A stretch of 64,000 nt of DNA from a virus (IMGVR_UViG_3300027820_000029:14039-78038), one strand, 5' to 3'; shown: positions 3,715 through 21,166, counted from the stretch's first letter. Notes: a model not told the origin generated them from the letters alone. Numbers and translations: made by a program.

Positions 3715-3723
3715 TTTCTTAGT

Positions 3724-4080
3724 TTATTCTTTAACTCCCATTTCAGCATTTACACTTTGGGACATTCTGACAATAGCTTCCCAATGTGCAGTCAAGTCTC
3801 GCAGAGAGGCATTTTTATAAGAAGGTAGTTCAACACCATATACATTTTCCATGGCGGTAATAACATCTTCTTTGTTAACCTTGTTAACAGTAGCAGAAGG
3901 TTTAGCTTTAGGTACATAAACCTTTTCTGCTACAAGTTTACCACGTACTTGAGGTACTGTAACTTCAAACTCCTTGGCTAGTGCTTTAACTACTGCACTG
4001 CGTGTAGCATAGTCAGCTTCCTTAGAAGCATTATAGGTATCTAGCATGTGGCTAGTTTGCTGTGTTGTAAAATTACTCAT
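3724..4080 (-). CDS. A2-like small putative DNA-binding protein, paralogue 2
   Basis: NFTTQQ...VRGKLVAEKVY...NKEDVI...YKNASLRDL pattern; strong RBS and its own promoter. Confidence 0.7.
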   Translation of the reverse strand: MSNFTTQQTSHMLDTYNASKEADYATRSAVVKALAKEFEVTVPQVRGKLVAEKVYVPKAKPSATVNKVNKEDVITAMENVYGVELPSYKNASLRDLTAHWEAIVRMSQSVNAEMGVKE

Positions 4081-4144
4081 TTTTTCTTTCTCCTGGTTAA
4101 TTAATTTAATTTAAAAATTGAACTTTTTCTCATTCAATAAATAT

Positions 4145-4173
4145 ATTATACTTTGTTTTAGCAGAGGAGTCAA
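4145..4173 (-). promoter_or_regulatory. sigma70-type promoter
   Basis: TTGACT-N17-TATAAT. Confidence 0.85.
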
Positions 4174-4227
4174 GAGTTATATTTTGATTGCTTAAGGTAT
4201 CATTATTTATGTTTCATCATTATTGTT

Positions 4228-4363
4228 AGCTTCATCACTGTTTGCTTCATCACTGTGTTAGCTGTATCACTTGTACCACGCTGTATCACGCTTTATCGTT
4301 GTATCACGCTGTATCACGCTTCATCGTTGTATCATGCTGTATCACGCTTCATCGCTGTATCAC
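4228..4363. repeat. Non-coding tandem array of GCTGTATCAC / GCTTCATC units
   Basis: About a dozen 8-10 bp units read directly; dispersed copies near 4698-4708 and 4828-4845. Confidence 0.9.
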
Positions 4364-4883
4364 TTTCAAACTTTTATTCTCCCGCAGCACCGCTTGCGGG
4401 CCCGCTCCCACGTTTTATTTTGCAGCCGGCGCCCGTACAGTGATGGTCGGTGCACAGCATTTGGTTTCTATAAATTTGTGGGAATTTCTTAGTAATAAGG
4501 TAAGTTTCTTAAGATTGCTTAATTTTTGTTATTTTTTTTCGATATTTCTTAAAATTTCTTTGTTTTAATCAATTTCACGTTATAAATTTCGTTTTCTCAA
4601 GGTATCCTAACATATATCCTTAATGCAATTCAGAAAAATCTAGATAACGCTTCAGAATTTAACTTACATTATTCTGGACTCCTTTAATACTAACAGTCAC
4701 TGTATCACTGGAGTCGGGAAGTTATTTCTAGCCGAGCTGGAAAAAATTTTTTAGAAATTTTTGAAATTAGCGCGCGCAAAATCGTGCAGATGTTATTTTG
4801 GTACTCTTAAAAATTCGGGGAAATTACTTCATCGCTGTATCACTGTCTCCCTGGGTTGGGCTTAGGGAAAAATAAAAAAGTAC

Positions 4884-4913
4884 TTGACAAACCCTAGCCC
4901 GCTGTGATAAAAT
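4884..4913 (+). promoter_or_regulatory. Orphan sigma70-type promoter
   Basis: TTGACA-N18-TAAAAT with an upstream A-tract and GGCGCC after the -10. Confidence 0.65.
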
Positions 4914-4975
4914 GGCGCCCACGGAAGATACGAAAAAATATCGTTTTTGTACTCGCGCGGGCGCAGCAAAATTAT

Positions 4976-5557
4976 TTATAAATCAAGCATCTCTTCTTCT
5001 TCAGGGAATTCTAATTCTAACATTTGGTTATAATTTCCTAAGTATGAACCATCTGCCATATAAAACGCAGAAACAGTATCATCAACAAAACATGGTTGAT
5101 TTTCTTTATTAAATACTTCATATCCAAAGCGAGACATGTTATTCATGTTTATAGCTTCTTCTAGCTTTTTATCATATTCAGATTTTTCAATTATTTCAAC
5201 TTCATTAATTTTATCATCTTTATCAATTATTTCAACTTCATTAATTTTATCATCTTTATCAATTATTTCAACTTCATTAATTTTATCAATTATTTCAACT
5301 TTTTCAATTTTTTCAATTTTTTCAATTTTTTCAATTTTTTCAATTTTATCAAATTCTTTTAAAAATTTATCAATTTTTTCATCTACATTTAAAGGAATTC
5401 TATTTTTTCGATTTATTCCAAATTTCCCCGAATACCTCTGTGTTATTGCAGAAACTGACCTATGTGGTAAAAATTTTTCCTGTATTTCTTGGTCTGTCAT
5501 ATTTGTACTTTTATGAATTTTTTTAAGTAATTCATCTTCTTTATTTTGCCAATGCAT
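4976..5557 (-). CDS. Protein with Myb/SANT-like N-terminus and low-complexity repeats
   Basis: WQNKEDELL...HRSVSAITQR; (KIE)n and (DKINEVEIIDKD)n repeats; promoter at 5627-5655. Confidence 0.7.
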   Translation of the reverse strand: MHWQNKEDELLKKIHKSTNMTDQEIQEKFLPHRSVSAITQRYSGKFGINRKNRIPLNVDEKIDKFLKEFDKIEKIEKIEKIEKIEKVEIIDKINEVEIIDKDDKINEVEIIDKDDKINEVEIIEKSEYDKKLEEAINMNNMSRFGYEVFNKENQPCFVDDTVSAFYMADGSYLGNYNQMLELEFPEEEEMLDL

Positions 5558-5626
5558 TTTAACTCCTTTATATATCTAAATTATTTTAACTATTTTAAAT
5601 AAATGAATTATTTCATTTATTTTAAT

Positions 5627-5655
5627 ATTATACCAAATTTTAAAATATTTGTCAA
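5627..5655 (-). promoter_or_regulatory. sigma70-type promoter
   Basis: TTGACA-N17-TATAAT. Confidence 0.85.
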
Positions 5656-5879
5656 GCAACTTTTTTTATGGATTAATTTAGTACTTAGATTTAGTACATT
5701 ACTTTAGTACTTAGATTTAGTACTTTATTAATATGTAAAAATCGAATCGGTACTCTACTCAGCCAGCCAAAGGCGCAAGCGCCTATTAGAATATGTTTAT
5801 ATTCTAATATAATAATATTAGCAAATTCTAATATAAGTTCAGCTTATACCCCCATAAAAAAATTTTGTGCAAAAAAGAC

Positions 5880-6004
5880 TTGACCGCCGGTGATTGGCCA
5901 TGTTATACTGGTAGTAGCGTGCTCGCGCGAGCGGCGCCTATAAGAATTTTTTATGCCATTATAAAAAACTTTTGCTTGACAAGGCATCCAGCCTAGTGTA
6001 CCAT
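5880..6004 (+). promoter_or_regulatory. Two tandem orphan sigma70-type promoters
   Basis: TTGACC-N18-TATACT (5880-5909) and TTGACA-N17-TACCAT (5976-6004). Confidence 0.6.
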
Positions 6005-6114
6005 GGTATTGTGGGAGACTCGGGTCCTAGGGACGGCGCAATACCGTCAATAAATTGACGGTATTCTGGGGCAGCAGTATATTAGAATATTCTAATATAC
6101 TGCTATTCGAATGC

Positions 6115-6183
6115 AAAAAAAGGCCCCGCCAATTTTTTGGCGGAGCCTGGTTAAAAAGTGGCGGGGAAATTCTCCCCGCCGGA
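6115..6183 (-). terminator. Tandem terminator hairpins after the A2-like gene
   Basis: GGCGGGGA/TCCCCGCC and GGC.CCGCCAA/TTGGCGG.GCC stems with U runs on the minus strand. Confidence 0.7.
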
Positions 6184-6190
6184 TTAGCGA

Positions 6191-6607
6191 TTAACTGCTA
6201 AGATAGTTTGATACATCGTTATAGCGAGCCGCCATTGTATTGACGCTTTCGACATACACGATCAAAGCCGTTAAATCGGTCTTGTTGAGCTTCTCAGCGG
6301 AAACAAGGTTTAAACCTACCATCTCAACAAATTGCGCGGCCAAAACATCCTTTTTTGCTGGAGCAGCGCCGGTAACACTTGAAACCTTTTCTTTCGGCCG
6401 ATAGAGCTTCTCAAGCTCTCCAGTTGCGTTTTCAAAGGTCATAGGAGCAAGTTTAGCGATAACACCCTTCCAGGATTTTCCGAGATCCGCCGCAATCTGG
6501 CGAACAACAGAATCGCGCATTTCCTGATCTTCATCCCGTACCGCAGTATAGCGGTCACGAATTTCCGAAATCATAGTTTCGGTATAGTTCGGGGTTTTTG
6601 TAGCCAT
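6191..6607 (-). CDS. T5 A2-like pre-early DNA-binding protein
   Basis: NYTE...GVIAKL...LYRPKEKVSSVTGAAPAKK...EKLNKTDL resembles T5 A2 from memory; lies near the dmp-like gene. Confidence 0.65.
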   Translation of the reverse strand: MATKTPNYTETMISEIRDRYTAVRDEDQEMRDSVVRQIAADLGKSWKGVIAKLAPMTFENATGELEKLYRPKEKVSSVTGAAPAKKDVLAAQFVEMVGLNLVSAEKLNKTDLTALIVYVESVNTMAARYNDVSNYLSS

Positions 6608-6661
6608 AGTGCATTTTCTCCGGTAAATTCAGGTCGGGACCATTCCCGACCTGATGTAAAC

Positions 6662-6690
6662 ATTATATAGAAGTGTTAACCTGGTGTCAA
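6662..6690 (-). promoter_or_regulatory. sigma70-type promoter with a 5' hairpin
   Basis: TTGACA-N17-TATAAT, then an 11-bp stem TCAGGTCGGGA/TCCCGACCTGA. Confidence 0.85.
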
Positions 6691-6704
6691 CACTTTATTT
6701 CACT

Positions 6705-7430
6705 TTATTTTGCAATAAAGTGATTTTTCACTTGCATTTGTCTCCAGTCTGGTTTTTTCAGATCCACTAAATTTTTCAAAGCCCGACGTTTTGTAATGGC
6801 TCTCAAAATCGGTAACTCATAGTCTATAATATCCTCCAGAGCTGTATGTGGTTCGTTTGGCAAATCTGGGTTACCTAGCAAAAAACGTGCCATAATTTCA
6901 GCGTTAGCTTTATAAGACATATTGCCGAATTTTGTAGGATTATTAAAACCATGCACATCCAAAACAAATTCCCGATACTTTTTAGATTGCGCCCAAATAT
7001 CCGCAGCTGCGGCCCATAGACAAAATCGTTTTGAAAAACCCGTTAAATCAATTCCGGTTTTTTCACACTTGTCAACATCGAAAGGCAAGTTATACGCAGT
7101 CAAAAATGGGTCATAGTTTACTTTAACCCTATCTAACCAACGATTAATAGCCGATGCACTGGCTAACATACGCGAGCCACCTTCTAACATACGGGAATAA
7201 ACATCATACCGTTTTGACAAGCTGTCCCGATTCCAGATTGAGTCTACTGGAGCAGAGTTATCATAGAATAGTGGATGCGATTCCCGATTATTATAAACCC
7301 CGGCAACTAATACCGCACATTGTGCCGTTGTATTACCTTTACGATCAACCACCACAGCAGCAAAATCTGCTACTTTATCCGTCCGAGTTGTTTCTGTGTC
7401 AATAATACAAATAAACTGCTTTTTAGCCAT
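6705..7430 (-). CDS. DEDD/DnaQ-like 3'-5' exonuclease
   Basis: ExoI IIDTETT, ExoII AYNLPFD, ExoIII HTALED. Confidence 0.85.
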   Translation of the reverse strand: MAKKQFICIIDTETTRTDKVADFAAVVVDRKGNTTAQCAVLVAGVYNNRESHPLFYDNSAPVDSIWNRDSLSKRYDVYSRMLEGGSRMLASASAINRWLDRVKVNYDPFLTAYNLPFDVDKCEKTGIDLTGFSKRFCLWAAAADIWAQSKKYREFVLDVHGFNNPTKFGNMSYKANAEIMARFLLGNPDLPNEPHTALEDIIDYELPILRAITKRRALKNLVDLKKPDWRQMQVKNHFIAK

Positions 7431-7433
7431 AAT

Positions 7434-7916
7434 TTAATATCCTTGTTTTGACGGGGTGTATACCCCGACCGCAGAGAGATTATCGCACACCTTGCCTAGA
7501 TAGTCAAGGTTATCCTCAAAAAAAGTTATAGGTAAATCTCGAAACTGTTTAAGCTGTCGAAACATTGACAACCATTTAACCTTGAGTAACGCGCCGCTGG
7601 TATTTTGACCTTTTAGCCTACCGAAAATTTTATCTGGTATACCAAGGTGTTTAGCGATAAAATCCAGGTCTGGTTTTTTTAAAACCCGCGCAGTAGCGAT
7701 AACCACATAAATTTCAGGGTTGTCAATATCTTGACGGTATTTTTTTGCCAGTGGCAAAAGCGAATCCCTAGCGATTTTTTCTGGCGTGCTGTTTTTTCGC
7801 CAATACGCCAGGTCAATTTTCGTGCCACATGGCAAAGTTTTGTAACGATGTAGGCTACAAATTATCGTACCATCCAAATCATATACGTTAATTTTTTTAA
7901 GCATTCCAAACTCCAA
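7434..7916 (-). CDS. dmp: HAD-family deoxynucleoside-5'-monophosphatase, T5 Dmp-like
   Basis: YDLDGTIICSLHR, DSLLPL, IATARVL and FEDN match T5 Dmp motifs as recalled (WDLDGTIINSFHR, DTLLPL, ICTARLM). Confidence 0.8.
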   Translation of the reverse strand: MEFGMLKKINVYDLDGTIICSLHRYKTLPCGTKIDLAYWRKNSTPEKIARDSLLPLAKKYRQDIDNPEIYVVIATARVLKKPDLDFIAKHLGIPDKIFGRLKGQNTSGALLKVKWLSMFRQLKQFRDLPITFFEDNLDYLGKVCDNLSAVGVYTPSKQGY

Positions 7917-8109
7917 AACTGTTTGCTATCAGAAAGTAAGATTGTAACAGAAACAAGCTGTGTTGTCTAGTCTTTTTGAACAATATTAACAAAAAAAGAC
8001 AACTAATTATTCCTACAATAAATCCGCCAAAATAATGGCGACTAGAAAGTAGGCCAAAACCCACAGCGGCAAAAAACGTGCCAACATATTCAAAATATTT
8101 TTCATTCAT
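7897..8109 (-). CDS. Small multi-pass membrane protein
   Basis: Start moved to MNEKYF (GAGG 8 nt upstream); hydrophobic helices. Confidence 0.7.
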   Translation of the reverse strand: MNEKYFEYVGTFFAAVGFGLLSSRHYFGGFIVGIISCLFLLILFKKTRQHSLFLLQSYFLIANSFGVWNA

Positions 8110-8181
8110 AATCTGTGCCTCAATTCCAGAAACAGAATTATCGCATATCGCAATATCTTTGTATATACCCCATTTGGGGTA

Positions 8182-8313
8182 TTGACAACCCACAGGCGGC
8201 TGTGGTATAATGGCGCCTCCGTCAAAAATCTGGCACCATGCAAAATCTGTGCCAATTTATTTTGTCAATATCCACAAATAGGTATTGACACCAGGCAGCG
8301 GCTCCTGTATAAT
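8182..8313 (+). promoter_or_regulatory. Two tandem orphan sigma70-type promoters
   Basis: TTGACA-N18-TATAAT (8182-8211) and TTGACA-N17-TATAAT (8285-8313). Confidence 0.75.
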
Positions 8314-8378
8314 GAAAGTAGCGGATTCCCGCGGCGGCGCAAAAAAGCGTCAAGAAATTGACGCTTATGTTACAAAAT

Positions 8379-8404
8379 CTAGGGAGATAAATATATCTCC
8401 CTAG
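8379..8404 (-). terminator. Hairpin, probable terminator of the 8420-9224 operon
   Basis: 11-bp arms CTAGGGAGATA/TATCTCCCTAG followed by ATTTTG on the minus strand. Confidence 0.6.
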
Positions 8405-8419
8405 GAAAAGCAACAAATT

Positions 8420-8629
8420 TTATGCAAATTTAATGAAGCCCTTAAAATCTACCGCTAATTCGTATGGAGCATAATAAAATACTTCAGACACAAAATCATT
8501 TATATCTTCAAATTCGATCTCGAATGTTTCATCAATATCTTTATTTTCAGATTCAGAATTTTTCGATACCCAACATTTTCCATTTGAAATTGGGGTGTCA
8601 TGTTTAATATGTAAGTATAATTCTTTCAT
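8420..8629 (-). CDS. Acidic hypothetical protein
   Basis: ATGA overlap with the upstream gene. Confidence 0.65.
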   Translation of the reverse strand: MKELYLHIKHDTPISNGKCWVSKNSESENKDIDETFEIEFEDINDFVSEVFYYAPYELAVDFKGFIKFA

Positions 8630-8931
8630 TCATAAAACTCCTGATATGCTAGTCTACACCAGCGTTTAAAAATTTTTCCGTGGTTCCAGGCTTTACCATT
8701 TTCAGCTTGCCATACATGAATCATTTCATGCACCAGGGTATTGAATTTTTCCTGTTTTGATAGTGTTTCGGATATTCCTATAACCAATCCGCCGAGTTGC
8801 GTAGTTGTAAAACCATCTATTAAATAAGTGACATCAAATTGTTTTTTGCTACCATCAAATTTTATGATGTCAACACTAGGCAACTCGCTACCAAAAAGAC
8901 GGTCATTCACTTTGTTGTATAGCGAGCGCAT
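8626..8931 (-). CDS. SprT-like zinc metalloprotease domain protein
   Basis: TLVHEMIHVWQ...HGKIF motif; RBS GGAGG. Confidence 0.8.
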   Translation of the reverse strand: MRSLYNKVNDRLFGSELPSVDIIKFDGSKKQFDVTYLIDGFTTTQLGGLVIGISETLSKQEKFNTLVHEMIHVWQAENGKAWNHGKIFKRWCRLAYQEFYE

Positions 8932-8942
8932 AGTTCCTCCTT

Positions 8943-9224
8943 TTAGATAAAACCGTTTAGTGGGCCATAAACGAAGGTGGTGGGAATTGCCCGCGTTATT
9001 TCATTTTGCCAGTAAGTGAAGTAGTTCACCTTGCCGGATTTGTTTATCCACCGAAACTGAATTTCATCAGCTCCAAGGTCATGCTTGAGGGATTCCAAAT
9101 TTCGCTTACTGCAATAACAACCGCGCAGAATGTAAAAATCAATGCCAGAATTCCAATCAGAAAGAACATCTCTTTTCGTTTCATATTTTGCTCCATAAGC
9201 GGGTACCAAAGTGATTAAAGACAT
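8943..9224 (-). CDS. Hypothetical phage protein (MSLITLVPAYGAKY...)
   Basis: Start moved to 9224 on the basis of an AGGAGA RBS and the promoter at 9252-9280. Confidence 0.75.
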   Translation of the reverse strand: MSLITLVPAYGAKYETKRDVLSDWNSGIDFYILRGCYCSKRNLESLKHDLGADEIQFRWINKSGKVNYFTYWQNEITRAIPTTFVYGPLNGFI

Positions 9225-9240
9225 TGTGCAATCTCCTGTA

Positions 9241-9280
9241 ACTGAGAGGCTAGTATATACTAGCCTCTCAGTGATGTCAA
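9241..9280 (-). promoter_or_regulatory. sigma70 promoter embedded in a perfect 32-bp palindrome
   Basis: TTGACA-N17-TATACT; palindrome ACTGAGAGGCTAGTATATACTAGCCTCTCAGT at 9241-9272. Confidence 0.85.
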
Positions 9281-9492
9281 CTAATATTTTCCATTGCATC
9301 TTCAACGAAATATTTAGCTTCCCGTAGTCCACAATCGAATTCCCAACGAATAAGTTTAATTGCCTTAATTTTATCAAGTTTTCCGAGTTTAGCAGCAAAA
9401 CTGTAAAATAATTCAACATATTCTGGTGAACGATCTGTATCGAAACTTACATCATTCGGCAGATTTACCGTAGTTTTCAAATTTATATACAT
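9277..9492 (-). CDS. Protein with ribosomal L7/L12 C-terminal-like domain
   Basis: KIKAIKLIRWEFDCGLREAKYFVE matches the KI.vIK.vR...gL.eAK.lVe pattern. Confidence 0.7.
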   Translation of the reverse strand: MYINLKTTVNLPNDVSFDTDRSPEYVELFYSFAAKLGKLDKIKAIKLIRWEFDCGLREAKYFVEDAMENIS

Positions 9493-9509
9493 AACAATCT
9501 CCTGTAAGT

Positions 9510-9546
9510 GAGAGGCTAGTATATACTAGCCTCTCCTAGATGTCAA
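9510..9546 (-). promoter_or_regulatory. Second copy of the palindrome-embedded promoter
   Basis: 26-bp palindrome GAGAGGCTAGTATATACTAGCCTCTC; TTGACA-N17-TATACT. Confidence 0.85.
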
Positions 9547-9756
9547 TTAAAAGTTTTCAGGATTTACCCGGCGGAGCCAGGTAGCAACGGTTTCAGGATA
9601 GATCGCTGTTGCCAGCGATTCAAGTGCTGTAGCATCTTTAAACTCGCTGCGCTTGAAAGTAAAGTAGCTTTTTAGCGCCTTATTTCGACGAGTGTTATTT
9701 TCCGCCAGGTTGCGATCTTTACGGGTGGATTTTTTGGTACAGGTCTTTTTGCTCAT
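9547..9756 (-). CDS. Small basic hypothetical protein
   Basis: RBS GGAGAG; promoter TTGACA-N17-TATACT at 9809-9837. Confidence 0.7.
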   Translation of the reverse strand: MSKKTCTKKSTRKDRNLAENNTRRNKALKSYFTFKRSEFKDATALESLATAIYPETVATWLRRVNPENF

Positions 9757-9833
9757 AATTTACTCTCCGCCGAATTTGTGTGCCAGATAAAATATCGCCA
9801 CTGAGATAAGTATAGTCAAAATTTCATTCATTG

Positions 9834-9920
9834 TCAAGGCCCTTTGTAAAGTATTTTAAAAACAAGCCAACCTACCGGCAAACTTGCGAGTGCAATAAAT
9901 AAACCAGCTAAAATTTCCAT
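9834..9920 (-). CDS. 28-aa single-pass membrane microprotein MEILAGLFIALASLPVGWLVFKILYKGP
   Basis: Read by hand; RBS GGAGA; own promoter TTGACA-N17-TATAAT at 9947-9975. Confidence 0.65.
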   Translation of the reverse strand: MEILAGLFIALASLPVGWLVFKILYKGP

Positions 9921-9973
9921 TCTTTAGTTCTCCAAATCAAAGATATATTATAACAAAATTCGGATCGCTTGTC

Positions 9974-10030
9974 AACATCGGTTTTTAACATCGCTTTTTA
10001 ACATCGGTTTATAACATCGGTTTATAACAT
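9974..10030. repeat. 13-bp tandem repeat AACATCGSTTTWT, four copies plus a partial
   Basis: Units start at 9974, 9987, 10000, 10013. Confidence 0.9.
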
Positions 10031-10357
10031 GTCAATTTTTTGACACACCGTCAATTTTTTGACACACCGTCAATATTTTGACACATGCAAGAATCATGCC
10101 AGCGTCAAAATATTGACACATGCAAAAATCGTGCCAACCTGGCACCGCCAATTTGTTGACGCCCGCGCTCCCCTCTAGGCCACCTCCCCATATGCTGAAT
10201 TGAGGCCCATTGTAGCACGGATTACAGCCAGGCACAACCCCTTTTGGAAAATAAATATTGGCACATTTCTTGCTAATGCAATTATCGTGCCAGGTCCGCC
10301 GGCGCTTTTCATAAAATGTTTTTATGGTGGTATAAAAAAATTTAGTGCATAAAGTTG

Positions 10358-10386
10358 TTGCTATGTATACGCGGTTCCTGTATCAT
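10358..10386 (+). promoter_or_regulatory. Orphan sigma70-type promoter
   Basis: TTGCTA-N17-TATCAT followed by GAAAGTAGCG, as after the 8285 promoter. Confidence 0.6.
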
Positions 10387-10510
10387 GAAAGTAGCGTGCC
10401 CTGCTCGGGCGCCGTCAACAAGTTGACGGTATAAGGAGCGTCAATTTCTTGACGCATTTTGGTGCAAGGGCGCCAAAAACCCCTTGAAAATCAAGGGGTT
10501 ATGAAGCAGT

Positions 10511-10708
10511 CTACCAAGCTGAATATCCGGGTTCCGTGATGTAAATTTCGCGGCACAAGTCATCAGTGTAGCCATGATCTGGCATGATTATTGCATCAGA
10601 TGGAAGATCCATCTGCTCACGCACATAGTCGCAAGCTGCCGCCCAAGTGTCAAATTCTTGACGGTAGGTTCCATCTTCTGCGTTCAGAACTGTAAGGTAT
10701 TTCGACAT
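10511..10708 (-). CDS. Small acidic hypothetical protein
   Basis: Start moved to MSKYL (GAGG upstream). Confidence 0.65.
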   Translation of the reverse strand: MSKYLTVLNAEDGTYRQEFDTWAAACDYVREQMDLPSDAIIMPDHGYTDDLCREIYITEPGYSAW

Positions 10709-10768
10709 AGTTTTGTTGCCTCTTTGAAAGTTGCCACCGCCAGGAATTTGACGGTGGCTTAGTGTCAA

Positions 10769-11032
10769 CTAAATGGCGGTCCAGCTTGAGCGGTCGATCA
10801 TAGACGGCATGTCGCGCGCTGGCACAAAATTAACATGACCGTCAAGAATACGGCAGAACCAGCCGTCCAAAAAACCTTTCTTTACCATGCTAATAACATG
10901 GGTTTTACGCGCCTGTTCAGAGCCCATGAAAAACTTAAAACTTTTGACTGGTAAGGTAGTCAAAATTTTGACGGTAGCCTTTCGTCCAGCAACGGTCTGT
11001 TGGTGGGTACATGTCGATTTGTATGTGTTCAT
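10769..11032 (-). CDS. Hypothetical protein
   Basis: RBS GGAG; in operon. Confidence 0.65.
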   Translation of the reverse strand: MNTYKSTCTHQQTVAGRKATVKILTTLPVKSFKFFMGSEQARKTHVISMVKKGFLDGWFCRILDGHVNFVPARDMPSMIDRSSWTAI

Positions 11033-11035
11033 ATA

Positions 11036-11155
11036 TTAGACTCCAAAAATTGAGCTGAGGATAACGGCAATGGGAGCGCCTAGAAAAGCACTCAAGAAAA
11101 TCACAAGAAACTTCCAATCACACTTGGCATGAAATTTGCTGTAGTCATAAACCAT
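11036..11155 (-). CDS. 39-aa membrane microprotein MVYDYSKFHAKCDWKFLVIFLSAFLGAPIAVILSSIFGV
   Basis: Read by hand; RBS GAGGT; promoter TTGACA-N17-TAACAT at 11207-11235. Confidence 0.6.
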   Translation of the reverse strand: MVYDYSKFHAKCDWKFLVIFLSAFLGAPIAVILSSIFGV

Positions 11156-11334
11156 GGTAATACCTCTGGTAGGGCGGGTGGTGGTGGTTTTTTGTAACAT
11201 GCGAGCATGTTAATCCTATTTTCTATTCTTGTCAAGCTTTAAACGCATTGAAATAAAAATAAATTCTAGTTTCTTTTTATGTGCCCATAAAAAACTTTTG
11301 GGGCATATTTTGTGTCAATATCTCTAATGGGGTA

Positions 11335-11364
11335 TTGACAAGTAAGGGATAGCTGTGGTAAAAT
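11335..11364 (+). promoter_or_regulatory. Orphan sigma70-type promoter
   Basis: TTGACA-N18-TAAAAT then TGGCGCC; same layout as the 4884 and 8182 promoters. Confidence 0.65.
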
Positions 11365-11386
11365 TGGCGCCGCCAAATTTTTGACG

Positions 11387-11500
11387 CATAAGCTACGCTT
11401 ATGCGCGCATAGAAACATCCTATTTGACGTCAAAAATCTGGCACATAAGCTCAGCTTATGCGCGCATAGAAACATCCTATTTGACGTCAAATTCCTGGCG
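11387..11500. repeat. 57-bp tandem duplication built from small palindromes
   Basis: Units at 11387 and 11444 each contain CATAAGC..GCTTATG, ATGCGCGCAT and TTGACGTCAA. Confidence 0.9.
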
Positions 11501-11680
11501 GCGCTGTTCGCGCCTGGCGTTATGACGCCAGGGCCTCCGGCAGGGTGGAAGCCAGGCCAGCGGGCCTGGCATGCTTTTTGACTTGCAAAAGCTATGCCAA
11601 TATTTATTTTCTGAAAAGGGTTGTAATGCTCAGCCAGGCTGTTATACTGCACTCTCACCCACACAGAAAAGGACCGAAAA

Positions 11681-11899
11681 ATGAGCATATCCGTCAAAAT
11701 CGTAGAACACGCCGCGCACCATTGCTTCCAGGATGCTATCCGCATCAACACCTTTCGTGAGTGGGAAGAATGCCATCACCGGCTGTCGGGGATGGTAACC
11801 TTGGCAATCTGGGCAGACGCCAGCCGTAGCGCAAAAACCACACTACAATTATTGCGAGACATCGCAATGGAACGCAAATGGATGACTTTTGACGCTTAG
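11681..11899 (+). CDS. Hypothetical protein, the only credible plus-strand ORF in this segment
   Basis: RBS AAGGA; TTGTAA-N16-TATACT at 11621-11648. Confidence 0.55.
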   Translation: MSISVKIVEHAAHHCFQDAIRINTFREWEECHHRLSGMVTLAIWADASRSAKTTLQLLRDIAMERKWMTFDA

Positions 11900-12143
11900 C
11901 GTCAAAAGTTTGACCACCCGTCAAATCTTTGACGGGTGGGGGCGGTTATCGGACTTGGTCCGAGGCTCCTCGGACCTCACTACCCCACGCGTAAACGATA
12001 CAAGGTTTTTGAGAAACTACTACAAGGTGTATAAGATTTTTGAGAAACCAAGGTATATTTTTTGCATTGATTTTAGAGAGCTAAAATAAAATATTAACTT
12101 TAATATGCTAATCTACACCTAGCCTAAAAAGTATCAAGTGGGA

Positions 12144-12172
12144 TTGACATGGACAAAAAAATTTGATATAAT
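12144..12172 (+). promoter_or_regulatory. Promoter of the late/packaging operon
   Basis: TTGACA-N17-TATAAT with a TG extension, upstream of terS. Confidence 0.8.
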
Positions 12173-12205
12173 GCAATTTAATAATAGAAAAAATAAGGAG
12201 TACAC

Positions 12206-12661
12206 ATGTCTAATGCAATGATGAATCCAGAAGAAACTTATAGGATGCCACCAGAATTGCTAGAAGTTACTACTAGATATTTAGAAACAGCTAGTATAGA
12301 AGAAACAGCAAGTACATTAGATATACCTGTAGAAAAGGTAGTATACTATTTAAATAAAAAAGAGTCAAAAAGATTTATAGATACAATCTTCTTAGAACAA
12401 GGATATATAAATAGAACAAAGCTACAATCCACTCTAGATACAATTATAGATAAAAAACTGCTAGAGTTAGAAGAAGCAGAGTTAACTAGTAATAAAGACA
12501 TTGCAGACTTATTAACTCTAGCATTAAAAATGCGAGAAAGCTTTGTAAAAGATTTAGTAGCAGAACCAAAAGAAACACAACAAACAAACGTACAAGTTAA
12601 TGGCCCAGCAAATTTTGGGCTTAATTATAATAATTTACTAACTAAACTTATTGAGGATTGA
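12206..12661 (+). CDS. terS: Terminase small subunit, T5-like
   Basis: IDTIFLEQGYINR...IIDKKLLELEE...SNKDIADLL...QTNVQ resembles T5 TerS; first late gene. Confidence 0.85.
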   Translation: MSNAMMNPEETYRMPPELLEVTTRYLETASIEETASTLDIPVEKVVYYLNKKESKRFIDTIFLEQGYINRTKLQSTLDTIIDKKLLELEEAELTSNKDIADLLTLALKMRESFVKDLVAEPKETQQTNVQVNGPANFGLNYNNLLTKLIED

Positions 12662-12662: not shown

Positions 12663-12926
12663 ATGGTAGACGAAACAAGATGGAGACATCATAGAAGAGC
12701 ATTCGCTTCAGCAACAACAAGCGCAGCAGTGACAAAAAGTGACAGCACTGTATTAGATTTTAATGCACTATTTGTAGGAGGCGGTGGAGACGTAAGTATA
12801 GACCATGAAGAAGGCGGAGCAGCAGTGGTTTATTTAGGCGTATTACCTGGTTCAATCCTACCTGTTAGTGGAGTTAGAGTAAATGCAGCTACGACTGCAA
12901 CTAATATAGTTTGGATGAAGTGGTAG
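12663..12926 (+). CDS. Small putative virion protein
   Basis: RBS GAGG; beta-rich sequence (LFVGGGGDV...ILPVSGVRVN). Confidence 0.7.
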   Translation: MVDETRWRHHRRAFASATTSAAVTKSDSTVLDFNALFVGGGGDVSIDHEEGGAAVVYLGVLPGSILPVSGVRVNAATTATNIVWMKW

Positions 12927-13108
12927 TGGGAACTTTAGCTATCATTGGAATATCTACAGCAAGTATGCCTAATAGACTTTTCAGAGGTATATTAGCTTCT
13001 AGTGGTACATTTATACTTACTGGTAGCACTATTTCAATACCTAAAAAATTAGAAGCTACTAGTGGTACATTTACACTTTCTGGTACTTCAGTTACATTAG
13101 GATCATAA
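12911..13108 (+). CDS. Small protein with two SGTFxLxG repeat units
   Basis: SSGTFILTG and TSGTFTLSG are related to the repeats in 19138 and 24190; start uncertain. Confidence 0.55.
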   Translation: MDEVVVGTLAIIGISTASMPNRLFRGILASSGTFILTGSTISIPKKLEATSGTFTLSGTSVTLGS

Positions 13109-13109
13109 A

Positions 13110-13382
13110 ATGGCAAAACAAGATATAGACTTAGGTACCGGTCCAGATACACCTGGAGCTGATAATTTATATGAAGCATTTAGCAAAGTAAAAGATAACT
13201 TTGATGAACTTTATGCTGAAAAAATTATACTTGTTAGTGAATATACAGTAGCAACTTTACCTTCAGCATCAACATATGATAATGCAATTATTATTGTATC
13301 CGATGAAACTGGGGGTAGAACCTTAGCTACTAGTGATGGAGATAAATGGTATAGAGTTAGTGATGGAGTTGAAGTTTCATAA
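13110..13382 (+). CDS. Virion protein with T4 gp9/gp10-like N-terminal module
   Basis: MAKQDIDLGTGPDTPGADNLYEAFSKVKDNFDELY. Confidence 0.75.
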   Translation: MAKQDIDLGTGPDTPGADNLYEAFSKVKDNFDELYAEKIILVSEYTVATLPSASTYDNAIIIVSDETGGRTLATSDGDKWYRVSDGVEVS

Positions 13383-13744
13383 TGGCTAAACAAGCAATAG
13401 ACATGGGTACCGGTCCAGATACACCTGGAGCTGATACATTAAACTCTGGATTTACAAAGGTAAATGCCAATTTTGATGAATTATATATTAGAAATGGTGA
13501 ATATACTCCCGCAGGAGTTTTAGTGTATCCATATATAAATGCACAAACTGTAGTTTATGCTAGCGGTATTGTAGATTATGTATCTACATCTTATGATTCT
13601 AAAACATGGACTCTAGGCCCTTCCGCATATAATGCTGTAGGACAAGTAACAGAAATAACCGCTACAGATAGTATCACAGAATGGACAAAAACTATTGCTT
13701 ATACTAATGGTGTAGTATCTAGTGAAGGAGAGTGGACAACATGA
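13382..13744 (+). CDS. Virion protein with T4 gp9/gp10-like N-terminal module
   Basis: MAKQAIDMGTGPDTPGADTLNSGFTKVNANFDELY. Confidence 0.75.
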   Translation: MAKQAIDMGTGPDTPGADTLNSGFTKVNANFDELYIRNGEYTPAGVLVYPYINAQTVVYASGIVDYVSTSYDSKTWTLGPSAYNAVGQVTEITATDSITEWTKTIAYTNGVVSSEGEWTT

Positions 13745-14127
13745 GTTTAGCCGATGCTATACTAGGAAGTATAAAAATACCTAATAATGCTTTACAAGTA
13801 AGTACTGGATATATGGAAGTAAAATATCTAGCCAATGCATTAAATACTACTGGAACTAAAACTTCTTTAGAATATGGTGTAGATAATATATCATGGCCTG
13901 CTTCATTTCAACTTATTGCCACAGGACGAGGTTCAAATACTACTGCTGTAGAAATTGAAGTTTCTAATGATAATATTAATTATTCGTTCTATTGTTATCT
14001 ATCATTAAGTGGTGGATCTACAGGTATAACACGTACTTCAGGAATTATACCTTGGAAATACGTACGTATTACTTGTACTATATTACAGAACCCCGGTACA
14101 GGTACTTATTCGGTGATAATGCTATGA
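13741..14127 (+). CDS. Putative virion protein, beta-sandwich-like
   Basis: VEIEVSND...WKYVRIT pattern; ATGA overlaps at both ends. Confidence 0.7.
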   Translation: MSLADAILGSIKIPNNALQVSTGYMEVKYLANALNTTGTKTSLEYGVDNISWPASFQLIATGRGSNTTAVEIEVSNDNINYSFYCYLSLSGGSTGITRTSGIIPWKYVRITCTILQNPGTGTYSVIML

Positions 14128-14702
14128 AAACTAATTATTTATTACATAACCCCGTTAACTTAAATATTCCTGGTAGTTTAGATATAAATGGTACATATAT
14201 TTTTACTCATGTAGTAGGAACTGCTTCTGAGCGTGCAAATACTGCATTATCATTCTTAACTACTGGTTTAGTATGGGATGAAAATGATACTGGTGATATT
14301 TATAAATTTATTGGTCCTTTAGTTACTGACTGGATTCAAATTGGTACTGCTGGAGCTATTAATGTTAATCCATTACTAATTTCTGGTGAAGATCAAACAA
14401 ATGATGTCATTAAGGTGGAGGAGAGATTCGCTTATCATCATGTAGAGCCTTCACAGACAGCTGAGATTTTAGGGACTACAGGGGCAGCAGGTGATTTCTT
14501 GCACACTATCACCTGGAGGAACACAGGAAATGGTCAAATAACCATTATTGACGGATCTACAAATGTACTAGCGGTAGCCGGCATTGGCACACCAGCTAGT
14601 GTTCAGACTGGTACATATATTATTGATGCTGTATGCACAACTGCCTGGAAGATCACCACAGGTTCTGGGTGTGAGGTATTAGCTACAGGCAGATTTACCT
14701 AA
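14124..14702 (+). CDS. Putative virion protein
   Basis: Start moved to MKTNYLL (overlap with the upstream stop). Confidence 0.7.
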   Translation: MKTNYLLHNPVNLNIPGSLDINGTYIFTHVVGTASERANTALSFLTTGLVWDENDTGDIYKFIGPLVTDWIQIGTAGAINVNPLLISGEDQTNDVIKVEERFAYHHVEPSQTAEILGTTGAAGDFLHTITWRNTGNGQITIIDGSTNVLAVAGIGTPASVQTGTYIIDAVCTTAWKITTGSGCEVLATGRFT

Positions 14703-16168
14703 TGGCTGACTTCTTCGTATCCCAATCTGGTGCTGGATCCACAGATGGGTCTAGTCCTGCCAATGCGCAGGCTATTGGCTCTGTCACATGGTCATCTCAC
14801 CCAGGGAATGATGTCTATTTATTGGGGTTGATAACAACAGGTGTAAATGTCAATGCAGATGCCACTGAGGGTAACGAAATTGTTATCCGTGGTGATGGGG
14901 CTACTCCCGGTGTAATTACCGTAACAGGGGCGTATGGGATTTTATTCGCAGGCGATTGGATTATCCTGAAGAACATAACTGTTACAGGTTGCAGCACTTA
15001 TGGTATTAAGATTGCGTCTGCGGTAGATGTAACAGGTTCGACTATTGATAATTGCGAGATAACAGATAATGTGCAGCGGGGTATATCTTATTTGCAATCC
15101 AGTGGCACTGCAAAAACTCTCGATCAATTAACTATTACAGATTCCACGATAACGGGTAGTGGATATGAGGGTATCAGGGTCACGATAGAAGCAGCAGGTG
15201 CTGCCTCTGATAAGATTACGAATTTAACTATTACTGGGAATACTATTACTGGTAATGGTGGAACACTTTACGCTGGAATCCGTGTGGGTGATAGCGGTCA
15301 TGTTTCTGCTATTAACGAAACCCTAGTTATTGACAATAATACGGTATCGAGTAATCGAGGGATTGGTGGGGTTCTCATTATAGGGTTCACCGATACATCG
15401 TATGTTAGCAGTTTTTCCGGTAATACATGCAATGGGAACTTAGGGGTTCTCGGTGGGATGAATATTCAGGTATCGGCGTATTTCACAATTGAAAATAACA
15501 CATGTAACAATAATGAGGCGGATGAAGGCATTGATGGTCATGGTCTACTCATTGATGATGGCTGCGACAATATTATTTGCAGGCATAATTCATGTAGCGG
15601 AAATGTTGGCTATAGCGGTGCGGATATAACATCTGGGGCCGGGATAATGGTGTTATCTGTGACAAATGGTGAGATATACGGAAACCTGGGAACAGGAAAT
15701 CGAATTGGGATGATATTGGGTGGTGCGTCAGCCCATACATCGACTCGCATTTATAATAATACTTTTGTTAATTCGACTCATTATGGATTCATTGCGGGCG
15801 ATGCGATGGCAGATGATGTAGTTGAGATCAAAAACAACATTTTCACAGGTGATAGTGATGGGTTTTACGTCAATACCGGAACAGATCAGACAGATGAAGA
15901 TTACAACATCTTCTATGGGTTTGATACTCCGACTACAAACCATACCCTGGGGACTAATACCTTAACTTCAGATCCTCTTTTAGATGCTAACTACAAACCA
16001 ACTGTTGATTCGCCTGCTTATGAAGCAGGGATATTTGTATCTTCTATTAAGGATTACCAAGGCAGACCATATCATATCCCACCAACTATAGGAGCTTATG
16101 AGTTTACTTCTGGATTCCCTGCGCAGCCAAGAACATCAACTAATACTCGTATAGGCAGATTTACATGA
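14702..16168 (+). CDS. Right-handed beta-helix (pectin-lyase-like) protein
   Basis: Repeated IxNNTxxxN strands; C-terminal DPLL...DYQGRP...TIGAYEF tail. Confidence 0.85.
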   Translation: MADFFVSQSGAGSTDGSSPANAQAIGSVTWSSHPGNDVYLLGLITTGVNVNADATEGNEIVIRGDGATPGVITVTGAYGILFAGDWIILKNITVTGCSTYGIKIASAVDVTGSTIDNCEITDNVQRGISYLQSSGTAKTLDQLTITDSTITGSGYEGIRVTIEAAGAASDKITNLTITGNTITGNGGTLYAGIRVGDSGHVSAINETLVIDNNTVSSNRGIGGVLIIGFTDTSYVSSFSGNTCNGNLGVLGGMNIQVSAYFTIENNTCNNNEADEGIDGHGLLIDDGCDNIICRHNSCSGNVGYSGADITSGAGIMVLSVTNGEIYGNLGTGNRIGMILGGASAHTSTRIYNNTFVNSTHYGFIAGDAMADDVVEIKNNIFTGDSDGFYVNTGTDQTDEDYNIFYGFDTPTTNHTLGTNTLTSDPLLDANYKPTVDSPAYEAGIFVSSIKDYQGRPYHIPPTIGAYEFTSGFPAQPRTSTNTRIGRFT

Positions 16169-17838
16169 CCACAAGTTATTTGGATGTAAATGCTGTTGGG
16201 GGTGGTGATGGCACAGTGGGGACGCCGTGGAATTCTCTGCCGGATGCTGAGACTAATAAGGCGTCTTGGGATGAACTCAGGATAAAGCGAGGGACAGTAG
16301 AGAATCTTGCGGACTATGGCGCTGAGTCTAAGTGCACATTTTATAGTGGGGATTCGGATAAGACAGTAACGACATATTATAATGGTGATGGGTCTGATGA
16401 TATATCACAGCCAAAACCTGTTTTTGACCATTATCACACATCAGAGGCTGGTGATTGGACAGAGGTAGACCCTACAGATCCGACTAGCCTATCTCCTGGG
16501 TCTAATCTATGGATTTTAGATGGTGGAATAGCATCATATAACCCCATACAGGCAGTGTGGTTTGGGGATGACTTTACCCCGGGCCAGTATCAGTTAGAAT
16601 ATTGGACTGTTGTGACTTCTACGCTTACCGATGTGACGACGAATGTCCCTGCTCAAGCTTTTCAGTTTGATTGGTTTCGGGGAACGGCAGAAGACAATAA
16701 CCGGTTAATCGTGTATTCAGTAGGGAACCCCGTCACTTATTATGGCGCGGTGTACTGGAGTGCAAATACCAAAGATAGAGTTTTTGAAGCTTTCAATTCC
16801 GATAACATTGTGATTGAAAACCTGTGTTTCCGTTATACCTCCCTAGGGGTGTTTAATGAAAGTGCAACAGATTCAACTACAGTCACTGGTGCTATTGTAC
16901 AGGATTGTGCTTTTAATCGTTGTGGTACGGGGATAAGAATTGCCGGGGCGGAGGGAACCTCACGAATTATGGATAATGCGATAATCAGGCGCAATACATT
17001 TTCCGACATTTTGCGTGGGGGGATTTGGGTTAGAGGTGAAGTAAGAAACGCTCGTATTTATGGGAATGCCTTTACCTCTAACGGGCTGGCTGTGTCGACT
17101 GGGGGAGTATATTTTAGTAAATGTATTCCTGGTACTGGATATTATAATTATGTGTATAACAATACATTTACAGATATGACATATGGACGATTTTACAACG
17201 GTGATGGAGGGGGGATAGAGACTGATTCGCAGACCACAAATACACGGATATATGGAAATGCTATTTCTCGATGTTATCAAGCATGGCATGATAACTCGGG
17301 CAAGGAAAATTGGTTTTATTCTAATCTGGTAGACGATTGTGGAATGGTTTATTTCGCAACTGATGCAACAAGCCAGGATGGGAATAATGCGCACATTATT
17401 AATAATACCTGCACTAATTTAACTGTGGATAGCACTTACAATGATGGCGACCAAACGCCTAAAGCTGCGATCCAGTATTCACCTATGACAATTGCTGGAG
17501 GCGAGACAAAGAATAATATTCTTTCAGGCTTATCTGGTAGCGGGATTCGTCGTTTTGACGCGCACAGTATTACTGAAGACAATAATTGCTTCAACGGATT
17601 TGCAGTAAATGTGATTGATGAAAATGATAATGCGGAATCTATTGGTAGTAACAGCATATCAACCGATCCTCTTTTAGGCGCGGATAATAAACCACTAGTA
17701 GATTCCCCAGTCTACGAAGCTGGCGTTTACACTGACGCGATAAAAGATCGTAACGGTAGACCATATCATATCCCACCAACTATAGGAGCTTATGAGTTTA
17801 CTTCTGGTTTTCAACCTCAAGATCGTTTACTACGATAA
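16165..17838 (+). CDS. Right-handed beta-helix (pectin-lyase-like) protein
   Basis: IRRNTF, IYGNAF, VYNNTF strands; same C-terminal tail as 14702. Confidence 0.85.
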   Translation: MTTSYLDVNAVGGGDGTVGTPWNSLPDAETNKASWDELRIKRGTVENLADYGAESKCTFYSGDSDKTVTTYYNGDGSDDISQPKPVFDHYHTSEAGDWTEVDPTDPTSLSPGSNLWILDGGIASYNPIQAVWFGDDFTPGQYQLEYWTVVTSTLTDVTTNVPAQAFQFDWFRGTAEDNNRLIVYSVGNPVTYYGAVYWSANTKDRVFEAFNSDNIVIENLCFRYTSLGVFNESATDSTTVTGAIVQDCAFNRCGTGIRIAGAEGTSRIMDNAIIRRNTFSDILRGGIWVRGEVRNARIYGNAFTSNGLAVSTGGVYFSKCIPGTGYYNYVYNNTFTDMTYGRFYNGDGGGIETDSQTTNTRIYGNAISRCYQAWHDNSGKENWFYSNLVDDCGMVYFATDATSQDGNNAHIINNTCTNLTVDSTYNDGDQTPKAAIQYSPMTIAGGETKNNILSGLSGSGIRRFDAHSITEDNNCFNGFAVNVIDENDNAESIGSNSISTDPLLGADNKPLVDSPVYEAGVYTDAIKDRNGRPYHIPPTIGAYEFTSGFQPQDRLLR

Positions 17839-19133: not shown

Positions 19134-19137
19134 TAGT

Positions 19138-20748: not shown

Positions 20749-20756
20749 AACTTAGA

Positions 20757-21119
20757 ATGTCAGCAGGAACATTAAATTTAAATATAGAAAGAGGCAGTAT
20801 ATTTGCCAAAACATTAGTTTGGAAGGATGCAGATAAAAATCCTATAAGCTTAGCAGGAAAAAGTGCACGTATGCAAATACGTCAACGAGTAGATGATATA
20901 GCTTATATAGCCGAATTAACTACTGGAAATAGCGGCATAGTTTTAGAAAGTGGTTCAGTTACTGGACAAATACAATTATATATAGGTGCAGTTGAAACAG
21001 ATACATTTGATACTGATTTTGCTGTTTATGACTTAGAAATATACGAAAACGGAAACGCAAATAATGTTATACGTTTACTTCAGGGACAAGTTATTATTTC
21101 TGAAGGTGTAACTAGATAG
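20757..21119 (+). CDS. Small Ig-like virion/adaptor protein
   Basis: LNLNIERGSIF...PISLAGKSARMQIR...VYDLEI...RLLQGQVIIS pattern common in phage structural modules. Confidence 0.7.
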   Translation: MSAGTLNLNIERGSIFAKTLVWKDADKNPISLAGKSARMQIRQRVDDIAYIAELTTGNSGIVLESGSVTGQIQLYIGAVETDTFDTDFAVYDLEIYENGNANNVIRLLQGQVIISEGVTR

Positions 21120-21166
21120 ATTTATTTCGCTTTCGCGAAATTAATTAATAGAGAGAGGAAAAAAGA

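Follow-up and report, generated by a model that had tools for sequence, protein, structure and literature searches.

The DNA analyzed here (the window) is a stretch of 64,000 nucleotides (nt), corresponding to bases 14039-78038 of the 78,038-base virus record IMGVR_UViG_3300027820_000029 of IMG/VR, which is estimated to be 63% complete and has no end repeats; the source of the phage DNA was marine sediment metagenomes. A GC-richer segment toward its left end carries ten copies of TGGCAY-N5-TTGC, the pattern of promoters used by RNA polymerase containing sigma-54 (the sigma-54 holoenzyme). Judged from their flanking bases and from equivalent pre-early clusters in ten other T5-like phages, these copies are very probably real sigma-54 holoenzyme sites under selection, which supports the original prediction that they are selected and not a product of chance. 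The phage appears to be a distant, uncultured relative of T5, and the segment its pre-early block, because the tail tube protein was 33-35% identical to those of Demerecviridae of Vibrio, Klebsiella, and Proteus, the large terminase (TerL) was 49% identical to that of Vibrio T5-like phages, a T5-type dmp, a T5-type terS, and an A2-family gene were present, and metagenomic relatives carried the T5 small terminase, T5 deoxynucleoside monophosphatase, and T5 nicking-endonuclease families. The proposed T5-like affiliation thus holds, at a distance. The dmp homologues of the metagenomic relatives carry PF26880, and a second A2-family paralogue is probably open reading frame (ORF) 6191-6607; neither the 78-kb record nor the loci of the relatives yielded an A1 homologue. 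Promoters of the form TTGACA-N17-TATAAT and Shine-Dalgarno sites suggest a proteobacterial host. The conserved ORF 6705-7430 had 2367 metagenomic homologues and none in cultured phages, so that no host could be deduced from it. Its homologues at 55-60% protein identity, for which the flanking DNA was fetched, were the sole route to the relatives and came from a protein collection; DNA searches with the segment for near and distant similarity to cultured phages gave no match, nor did searches of IMG/VR using ORF 6705, terL, and a DNA pattern.

Table 1. Sigma-54-type sites, accompanying elements, and genes of the segment (positions counted from the first base of the window), and sites in other T5-like phages.
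Feature	Position	Strand	Remarks
Sigma-54-type site TTGGCACAGATTTTGCA, intergenic	8240-8254	-	head of membrane-protein/dmp/ORF 6705 operon
Tandem sigma-54-type pair, 35 nt apart	10087-10101 and 10122-10136	-	pattern search and repeat D7
Face-to-face pair 10259(+)/10278(-), TGGCAC-N5-TTGC-N4-GCAA-N5-GTGCCA	10259-10292	both	inverted repeat I1
Face-to-face pair 11567(+, TTGA variant)/11585(-)	11567-11599	both	second copy of 10259/10278 element, opposite orientation
Sigma-54-type site CTGGCATGATTATTGCA	10580-10594	+	antisense in small ORF 10511-10768(-)
Sigma-54-type site	11125-11139	+	antisense in small membrane ORF 11036-11156(-), homologue not detected
Sigma-54-type site in membrane-protein gene	8069-8083	-	sense, codons 9-14, 142 nt upstream of dmp start
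Sigma-54-type site in ORF 6705-7430	6878-6892	-	sense, over peptide E-I-M-A-R-F-L/V-L
TTGA variant inside dmp	7813-7827	-	sense
Four GTCAA-N4-TTGAC palindromes (10031, 10050, 10069, 10104)	10031-10117	both	interleaved with tandem sigma-54 sites
Consensus sigma-70 promoter, no ORF behind	8182-8211	+	fires toward site 8240; module conserved in relatives
A2-family gene	~3772-4071	-	homology
ORF 6705-7430, 241 amino acids, conserved clade-specific gene	6705-7430	-	query used to find relatives
dmp, T5-type deoxynucleoside-5'-monophosphatase, pre-early marker	7434-7916	-	32-35% identical to T5 and KIT04 dmp
Small membrane-protein gene, 70 amino acids	7897-8109	-	ATG at 8109, GAGG ribosome-binding site
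terS, T5-type small terminase, right border of pre-early block	12206-12661	+	homologues carry PF26823
Relative L023, 6 sites			untranslated gaps of same block
Relatives L025/L026, 9 sites			untranslated gaps of same block
Relatives L027/L028, 5 sites, all within 95 nt			untranslated gaps of same block
Relative L029, 8 sites			untranslated gaps of same block
Vibrio phage KIT04, 3 sites	3718-6362		
Vibrio phage D254, 7 sites	105195-109603		
Vibrio phage D386, 6 sites	101502-105465		
Vibrio phage Chazly21, 2 sites per terminal-repeat copy			beside A2-A1-dmp
Vibrio phage Chester, 2 sites per terminal-repeat copy			beside A2-A1-dmp
Aeromonas phage AhSzq-1, 3 sites within 1.8 kb			beside A2

When both strands were searched for TGGCAY-N5-TTGC, ten exact matches were obtained in the window (6878-, 8069-, 8240-, 10087-, 10122-, 10259+, 10278-, 10580+, 11125+, and 11585-). 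Each of the ten originally predicted sites was recovered, and the proposed absence of sites outside the segment extends to the entire 78,038-base record, in which these ten are the sole matches. Dinucleotide-preserving shuffles yielded an expectation of 0.24 matches in the window, with a maximum of 3, and of 0.023 when only the GC-richer segment 6000-12200 (41-46% G+C, compared with ~30% in the flanks) was shuffled, so the enrichment over background by which the original prediction was to be judged is clearly present. The pattern read backwards, used as a control, had no match in the whole record. With one mismatch permitted, 13 of the 16 matches in the genome fell between 5500 and 12500. The two variants ending in TTGA were also located, one at 11567(+) as proposed and the other at 7813(-), one base from the proposed 7812; a third lies outside the segment, at 14850. 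The spacing of GG and GC doublets ten bases apart within TGGCAC-N5-TTGC was found at the ten exact sites, with the two TTGA variants in addition.

The match to sigma-54 promoters extends to bases that were not part of the search pattern. Among 55 unique sites pooled from nine phages, a pyrimidine precedes TGG in 76%, TGGCAY is followed directly by G in 75% and then by a purine in 80%, T occupies the next two positions in 69% and 75%, and A or T follows TTGC in 87%. We take these flanking preferences to be those of the published sigma-54 consensus, and several sites of the phage, such as TTGGCACGATTTTTGCA and CTGGCACGATAATTGCA, match the full consensus. The sigma-54 holoenzyme forms a stable closed complex at its promoters and needs an activator to leave it.

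Outside the phage, the sites follow a distinct distribution (Table 1). In the cultured genomes that possess them (112-127 kb), they are confined to the A2-A1-dmp neighborhood, and in Chazly21 and Chester they are duplicated along with the terminal repeat. The pattern scan found no sites in T5, Proteus phage Stubb, Salmonella phage SH9, or Klebsiella phage K7_rec12, and the pre-early DNA of T5 showed no excess even with one mismatch permitted. Providencia phage PSTCR5 has one poor match distant from its pre-early genes, and two non-T5 phages that share only an A1-like gene have zero and one match. The distribution of the sites fits a polar-flagellum hierarchy that is run on sigma-54 in Vibrio and Aeromonas but not in Enterobacterales, and the cultured phages that bear clusters infect Vibrio and Aeromonas hosts that encode rpoN. 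The literature searched linked no T5-like phage or member of the Demerecviridae to sigma-54 promoters, in agreement with the claim that no T5-like phage had been described as using sigma-54. T5 is held to use sigma-70 polymerase for all three of its gene classes (PMC7472727). The rpoN effect on the Salmonella T5-like phage Aji_GE acts indirectly, through RpoS and glutamine (PMC8744999), and was rejected as a link of this kind, the enterobacterial T5-like phages being devoid of sites. What is new is the restriction to pre-early DNA in T5-like phages, the host-linked distribution, and the fixed geometry of paired sites. The phages that share these clusters probably exploit host sigma-54 in a manner that has yet to be described.

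Conservation of the sites takes two forms. A site ~440 nt upstream of A2 can be aligned between Vibrio lineages despite an A1 protein identity of only 38%, with invariant GTTGGCAYG and TTGC blocks and four variable bases in between. Within the clade of the phage the sites are not strictly orthologous; they shift relative to a conserved antisense sigma-70 module, yet a site is always present nearby, which indicates turnover under a probable selection for presence. Particular arrangements recur as well. The 35-nt tandem pair of the phage (10087/10122) is also found in L023 (146/181) and L025 (2408/2443), and seven face-to-face pairs with an offset of 18-19 nt occur in five phages (two in the phage and one each in D386, L025, and L029, with two more in L027). 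Both head-to-head pairs in the original prediction belong to this set, being face-to-face with offsets of 19 and 18 nt. The spacers of the face-to-face pairs show a directional G-A-T-T preference and are non-complementary in every pair; therefore, two protein-recognition sites are conserved and not an RNA hairpin, and a hairpin or terminator reading of the pairs was rejected.

Individual sites differ in how much weight they bear. For site 8240 the predicted start lies near 8228, ~119 nt before the ATG of the small membrane-protein gene, which is the first gene of the downstream operon and is conserved in L023, L025, L029, and L031. A terminator at 8379-8404 precedes this site with no strong minus-strand sigma-70 promoter in between, an ortholog of the site is present in L031, and in L023, L025, and L029 the homologous operon likewise has co-oriented sites ahead of it. 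The predicted starts of site 8240 and of the plus-strand promoter 8182-8211 face each other ~10 nt apart. That promoter belongs to a family of near-consensus plus-strand sigma-70 promoters (4884, 5880, 5976, 6055, 8182, 8285, 10358, and 11335) that oppose minus-strand genes and have no ORF behind them; two of the transcripts begin with the same AAAGTAGCG leader, and the module at 8182 is conserved in L023, L025, L029, and L031. In the tandem pair 10087/10122, a GTCAA-N4-TTGAC box is fused to each site and covers its predicted start; the consensus sigma-70 promoter 9947-9975 follows 112-147 nt downstream of the pair. Between the GTCAA box array and this promoter, four to five tandem 13-nt units (ATCGSTTTWTAAC) occupy 9964-10028. 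The pair 10259/10278 is situated just upstream of an AT-rich tract and a minus-strand sigma-70-like promoter, and the pair 11567/11585 upstream of the sigma-70-like promoter 11621-11648 and gene 11681-11899(+); inverted repeat I1, which relates the two, has 40-nt arms and is 83% complementary to 10234-10273.

Four sites had been described as intragenic, and this description stands in part: 6878 and 8069 are in the sense orientation in conserved genes, but 10580 and 11125 are antisense in small ORFs that lack detectable homologues. The ORF around 10580 (10511-10768) had none in the relatives; GTCAA boxes are centered 158 and 184 nt upstream of the predicted start of this site. Site 11125 is directed at the ORF-less plus-strand sigma-70 promoter 11335-11364, downstream of which (11371-11484) lie two 57-nt units in tandem that are 86% identical and each contain a GCGCATAAGC-N3-GCTTATGCGC hairpin. 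Site 8069 overlies the peptide G-T-F-F/L-A-A, is common only to the closest relative, the 72%-identical L031, and is absent from L023, L025, and L029; the peptide would predispose to the motif, and the evidence for selection at this site is weak. At 6878 the codons nearly spell the motif, which is complete in two of eight homologues (the phage and L033), with the peptide kept in all. Because 6878 and 8069 are probably coding by-products or recent opportunistic gains, and 10580 and 11125 lie antisense in ORFs without detectable homologues, the solid core is the intergenic set 8240, 10087, 10122, 10259/10278, and 11567/11585.

Further motifs share the same gaps. In addition to the four palindromes interleaved with the tandem pair, nine exact copies of GTCAA-N4-TTGAC are present (6046, 7722, 8349, 10414, 10440, 10649, 10959, 11901, and 11920), giving 13 against an expectation of 0.07; they occur with the N4 spacing only, all within 6046-11933, and nowhere else in the 78 kb. 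The palindrome is often extended to CGTCAA-N4-TTGACG, and several copies lie inside the short transcripts of the ORF-less plus-strand promoters, where they would fold as tetraloop hairpins of 7 base pairs (bp). Relative to the sigma-54-type sites, GTCAA boxes are located 126-246 nt upstream of six and over or downstream of the predicted starts at the two tandem ones. The 14-bp pseudopalindrome of FleQ/FlrA, GTCAAT-N2-ATTGAC, is represented at 6046 by a copy that reads GTCAATAAATTGAC. A phage repressor, perhaps an A2-family protein, is an equally good candidate for binding the GTCAA palindromes. They are also present in L023, L025, L026, and L031 and were not found in L027, L029, or the Vibrio phages, nor near the arrays of L023 and L025, and we rejected them as an obligatory enhancer in any general sense.

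Other lineages have other companions. Vibrio phages D254, KIT04, Chazly21, D386, and Chester (L013-L017) carry perfect DnaA boxes (TTATCCACA), 5-7 per locus, and these boxes, together with CTGTAT-N4-ATACAG palindromes, lie within tens of bases of the sigma-54-type sites in untranslated pre-early gaps of all five. The CTGT-N8-ACAG palindromes are presumably LexA-box-like; one CTGTAT-N4-ATACAG copy is 12 nt upstream of the conserved site ahead of A2. In a 1.2-kb untranslated gap of L027, a group of five sigma-54-type sites spanning 95 nt is flanked (11540-12010) by five or more copies of AATGAGAATCATTCTCATT, which we regard as Fur-box-like (14 of 16 positions of the classical Fur box core). In L029 the companion is ATTAG-N6-CTAAT. 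A DnaA-box cluster was sought in the phage without success: the interval 5500-12500 contains two weak TTWTNCACA matches, no more than elsewhere in the window, and paired consensus DnaA boxes in inverted repeats, as at the proposed T5 injection stop, were not seen in this phage.

How the sites might be used was approached by tabulating 56 sites in nine phages against the called genes. Forty-one of them are intergenic, nine sense-intragenic, and six antisense. For 27 of the 56, a gene in the same orientation starts within 800 nt and no opposing gene intervenes, and eight more are co-oriented with the next same-strand gene start; seven of these eight are 805-1192 nt away (five in L025, two in L027), and the remaining one, in D386, crosses two tiny annotated minus-strand ORFs. 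The remaining sites either are antisense or complete a face-to-face pair as its second partner. The operon that contains dmp is preceded, at a distance of 110-450 nt, by a co-oriented site in the phage, L023, L025, L029, L031, and all five Vibrio phages, which on present sequence comparisons is the strongest argument for promoter function. Distance from a gene is compatible with such a function in Escherichia coli, where many sigma-54 sites far from genes are promoters with long leaders, and both distant and intragenic sites can act as promoters with leaders of 360-760 nt (PMC4591121).

We see about an even chance that a subset of the sites acts as pre-early promoters that depend on a host activator and work alongside sigma-70 promoters, with competition where sites overlap. 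Selection would keep the sites in the pre-early DNA (the DNA of first-step transfer in T5) of T5-like phages that infect hosts other than Enterobacterales. Site 8240 would then head the membrane-protein/dmp/ORF 6705 operon as an activator-dependent promoter, the tandem pair 10087/10122 and site 10278 would feed the next leftward operon in series with sigma-70 promoters, and the plus-strand sites would feed short non-coding transcription units. A host enhancer-binding protein would be needed to fire them, because no activator gene was found in any phage genome searched, and this part of the pre-early program would be tied to the sigma-54 state of the host. Sigma-54 binding and promoter firing, like the identity of the activator, are deduced here from DNA patterns. 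Holoenzyme bound but not fired would also compete with neighboring transcription where sites overlap one another or face a sigma-70 promoter. In E. coli, sigma-54 can repress when its site overlaps another promoter (PMC4591121), and this matters here because site 8240 faces promoter 8182-8211 with starts ~10 nt apart.

Several observations weigh against this reading. An enhancer-binding protein with PF00158 was found neither in the record, which is 63% complete, nor in four complete Vibrio T5-like genomes; a sub-threshold match in KIT04 proved to be a 33-residue P-loop fragment and was rejected as an activator candidate. A phage-encoded sigma-54 was likewise sought and not found. No shared activator box accompanies the sites across lineages. 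About 40% of the sites are antisense, partners in overlapping pairs, or without a gene to serve, and the pairs and arrays overlap too tightly for joint use, which speaks against a purely promoter role. In most cases an operon with a sigma-54-type site possesses a good sigma-70 promoter as well, and basal expression therefore does not require the sites. The probable by-products at 6878 and 8069 add to these points.

A less probable explanation, and the main rival, is occupancy without firing, in which the sites hold closed sigma-54 holoenzyme on the entering DNA within an assembly of host proteins on its untranslated pre-early regions. Such complexes could anchor or pause the DNA, insulate strong sigma-70 promoters from one another, or soak up sigma-54, as a counterpart of the paired DnaA boxes that have been suggested to mark the injection stop of enterobacterial T5-like phages. 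The fixed 18-19-nt offset of the seven overlapping pairs, tandem spacings of 18 to 56 nt (some too tight for simultaneous use), the sites lacking a gene, and the failure to find an activator in the genomes searched all fit this explanation, as do the near-perfect consensus with T-rich spacers and the untranslated gaps shared with look-alikes of DnaA, LexA, Fur, and FleQ boxes. A parallel is offered by the Davison preprint, in which eight conserved DnaA boxes occupy the equivalent untranslated regions of enterobacterial T5-like phages and host-protein binding is proposed to stop entry (bioRxiv 10.1101/866236). However, occupancy alone does not require the consistent co-orientation of sites ahead of the dmp operon, a handful of sites per DNA copy would make a poor sponge, and a cytoplasmic complex on DNA that has already entered has no evident way to stop further entry. 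Data from E. coli argue against roadblock repression, since intragenic bound sigma-54 holoenzyme showed no such effect (PMC4591121). Because the two sense sites look like coding by-products, intragenic positions are poor evidence for occupancy, which they had been suggested to support. The original prediction placed occupancy beside or in place of promoter use; promoter use now seems likely for a subset, given the 27 compatible sites and the site ahead of the dmp operon in most lineages, while the overlapping pairs, the arrays, and the sites without a gene keep occupancy alive.

A more specific and doubtful form of the occupancy explanation, drawn by analogy with the Davison proposal for DnaA boxes in T5, is that sigma-54-type sites together with DnaA-, LexA-, Fur-, and FleQ-type boxes make up a landing pad that gathers abundant DNA-binding proteins of the host in a physical and not a transcriptional role. 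With equally little confidence, we can imagine that parked sigma-54 holoenzyme would help to hold, pause, or protect the DNA that enters first in a two-step injection.

It is quite unlikely that the motif merely resembles a sigma-54 promoter and is instead the target of a phage-encoded protein, for example of the A2 family. With lengths of 33-34 bp, the face-to-face pairs are palindromes of the kind that a dimeric protein would be expected to bind, the clade has several A2-family paralogues (~3772-4071 and probably ORF 6191-6607), and such regulators act in the very block to which the motif is restricted; but most sites are single and asymmetric, and the bipartite 6 + 4 pattern, its exact spacing, and four flank preferences outside the search pattern all agree with the sigma-54 consensus. 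Moreover, the motif is common to phages with pre-early proteins that are only 30-40% identical or unrelated, and the accompanying palindrome differs by lineage, which a conserved host factor fits better than a co-evolving phage protein. An origin as a spreading repeat, RNA hairpins, or by-products of composition or coding is very improbable and appears largely refuted by the comparative data: sites 10087 and 10122 are copies of one 35-nt repeat, a single 40-nt element underlies both face-to-face pairs, 6878 and 8069 overlie conserved peptides prone to the motif, and the segment is GC-richer than its flanks, but the segment-only shuffle still leaves the sites unexplained, contexts outside the motif differ for most sites, the directional, non-complementary spacers mean that pairing is not conserved, and independent clusters with different flanks occur in eleven phages.

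Promoters dependent on host sigma-54 are as such already known in phages from Pseudomonas phage YuA (Ceyssens 2008, as cited in bioRxiv 10.1101/2023.10.13.562163). YuA resembles the present case in having host sigma-54 recognition sites in a phage genome with no phage sigma-54. It differs as an unrelated siphovirus with few single promoters, which reportedly serve late genes, whereas the T5-like phages have arrays and palindromic pairs in pre-early DNA only, known from sequence, with ~40% of sites lacking a gene to serve. The untranslated repeat region of T5 (AY543070) represents the same gene-poor compartment of pre-early terminal-repeat DNA, rich in repeats and palindromes and with clusters of host-protein sites, and the Vibrio T5-like phages carry perfect DnaA boxes next to the sigma-54-type sites; the enterobacterial phages, in contrast, have DnaA boxes and no sigma-54-type sites, the clade of the phage shows the reverse, and the role of the T5 repeats is itself a hypothesis. 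Non-canonical sigma-54 sites of E. coli and Salmonella similarly occur in both orientations and within genes or far from starts, and are mostly silent under any one condition, with some serving as long-leader promoters or giving antisense RNAs (PMC4591121; PMC3844500). Those sites are scattered at ~1 per 35 kb, compared with ~1 per 0.5 kb in one block here, zero elsewhere, and fixed pair geometries. The Pseudomonas FleQ box (GTCaNTAAAtTGAC / GTCAaAAAAtTGAC; PMC6120874, PMC10723142) has the same half-sites, spacing, and AT-rich center as the 13 palindromes of the phage, which co-occur with sigma-54-type sites; FleQ itself activates sigma-54-dependent transcription and can also bind at transcription starts or beyond them on the downstream side. 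On the other side, relatives keep sigma-54 arrays without a nearby box, the Vibrio phages have none, the box is known from Pseudomonas, which may not be the host, and a 434/Cro-type phage repressor would produce an identical 14-bp pattern.

The surroundings of the segment show additional features. A perfect 27-nt palindrome (GAGAGGCTAGTATATACTAGCCTCTC plus one base) is present twice, at 9244-9270 and 9509-9535, each time overlapping the -10 box of a TTGACA-N17-TATACT promoter on the minus strand, which resembles an operator arrangement for two successive small genes. A gene-free array of GCTGTATCAC-type repeats (4228-4367 and 4827-4847) marks the left edge of the GC-richer block beside the A2-family gene, and ORF 4976-5557 contains a 9-nt periodic repeat of the TCAATTWTT type (5142-5384, ~25 copies), which would encode a three-residue repeat protein if translated. 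Beyond terS, large ORFs fill 12663-31399 between terS-terL and terL-portal and gave no PHROG match and weak Pfam matches to carbohydrate-binding or Ig-like domains; this is an unusual insertion in the packaging module, as terS, terL, and the portal gene are adjacent in Vibrio T5-like phages. A ribonucleotide reductase gene of the B12-dependent type (57669-60881, minus strand) is split by an intein with a LAGLIDADG homing endonuclease, and bases 199-285 and 1753-1821 of the genome, at its left end and outside the window, are minus-strand genes for tRNA Leu-TAA and Glu-CTC.

A large branch of T5-like phages thus keeps consensus sigma-54 arrays solely in pre-early DNA, the first DNA to enter in T5. 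To this branch belong an uncultured, abundant clade of marine phages as well as Vibrio and Aeromonas phages under development for biocontrol in aquaculture. T5 serves as the textbook example of DNA entry in two steps. If the sites are promoters, the success of infection would depend on the sigma-54 and activator state of the host (motility, cyclic di-GMP, stress), with a bearing on host range, on resistance through mutations in rpoN or the activator, and on the design of phage therapy. If they are parking sites, they would provide a handle on the injection-stop problem. Under either reading, the question can be tested in cultured phage-host pairs.

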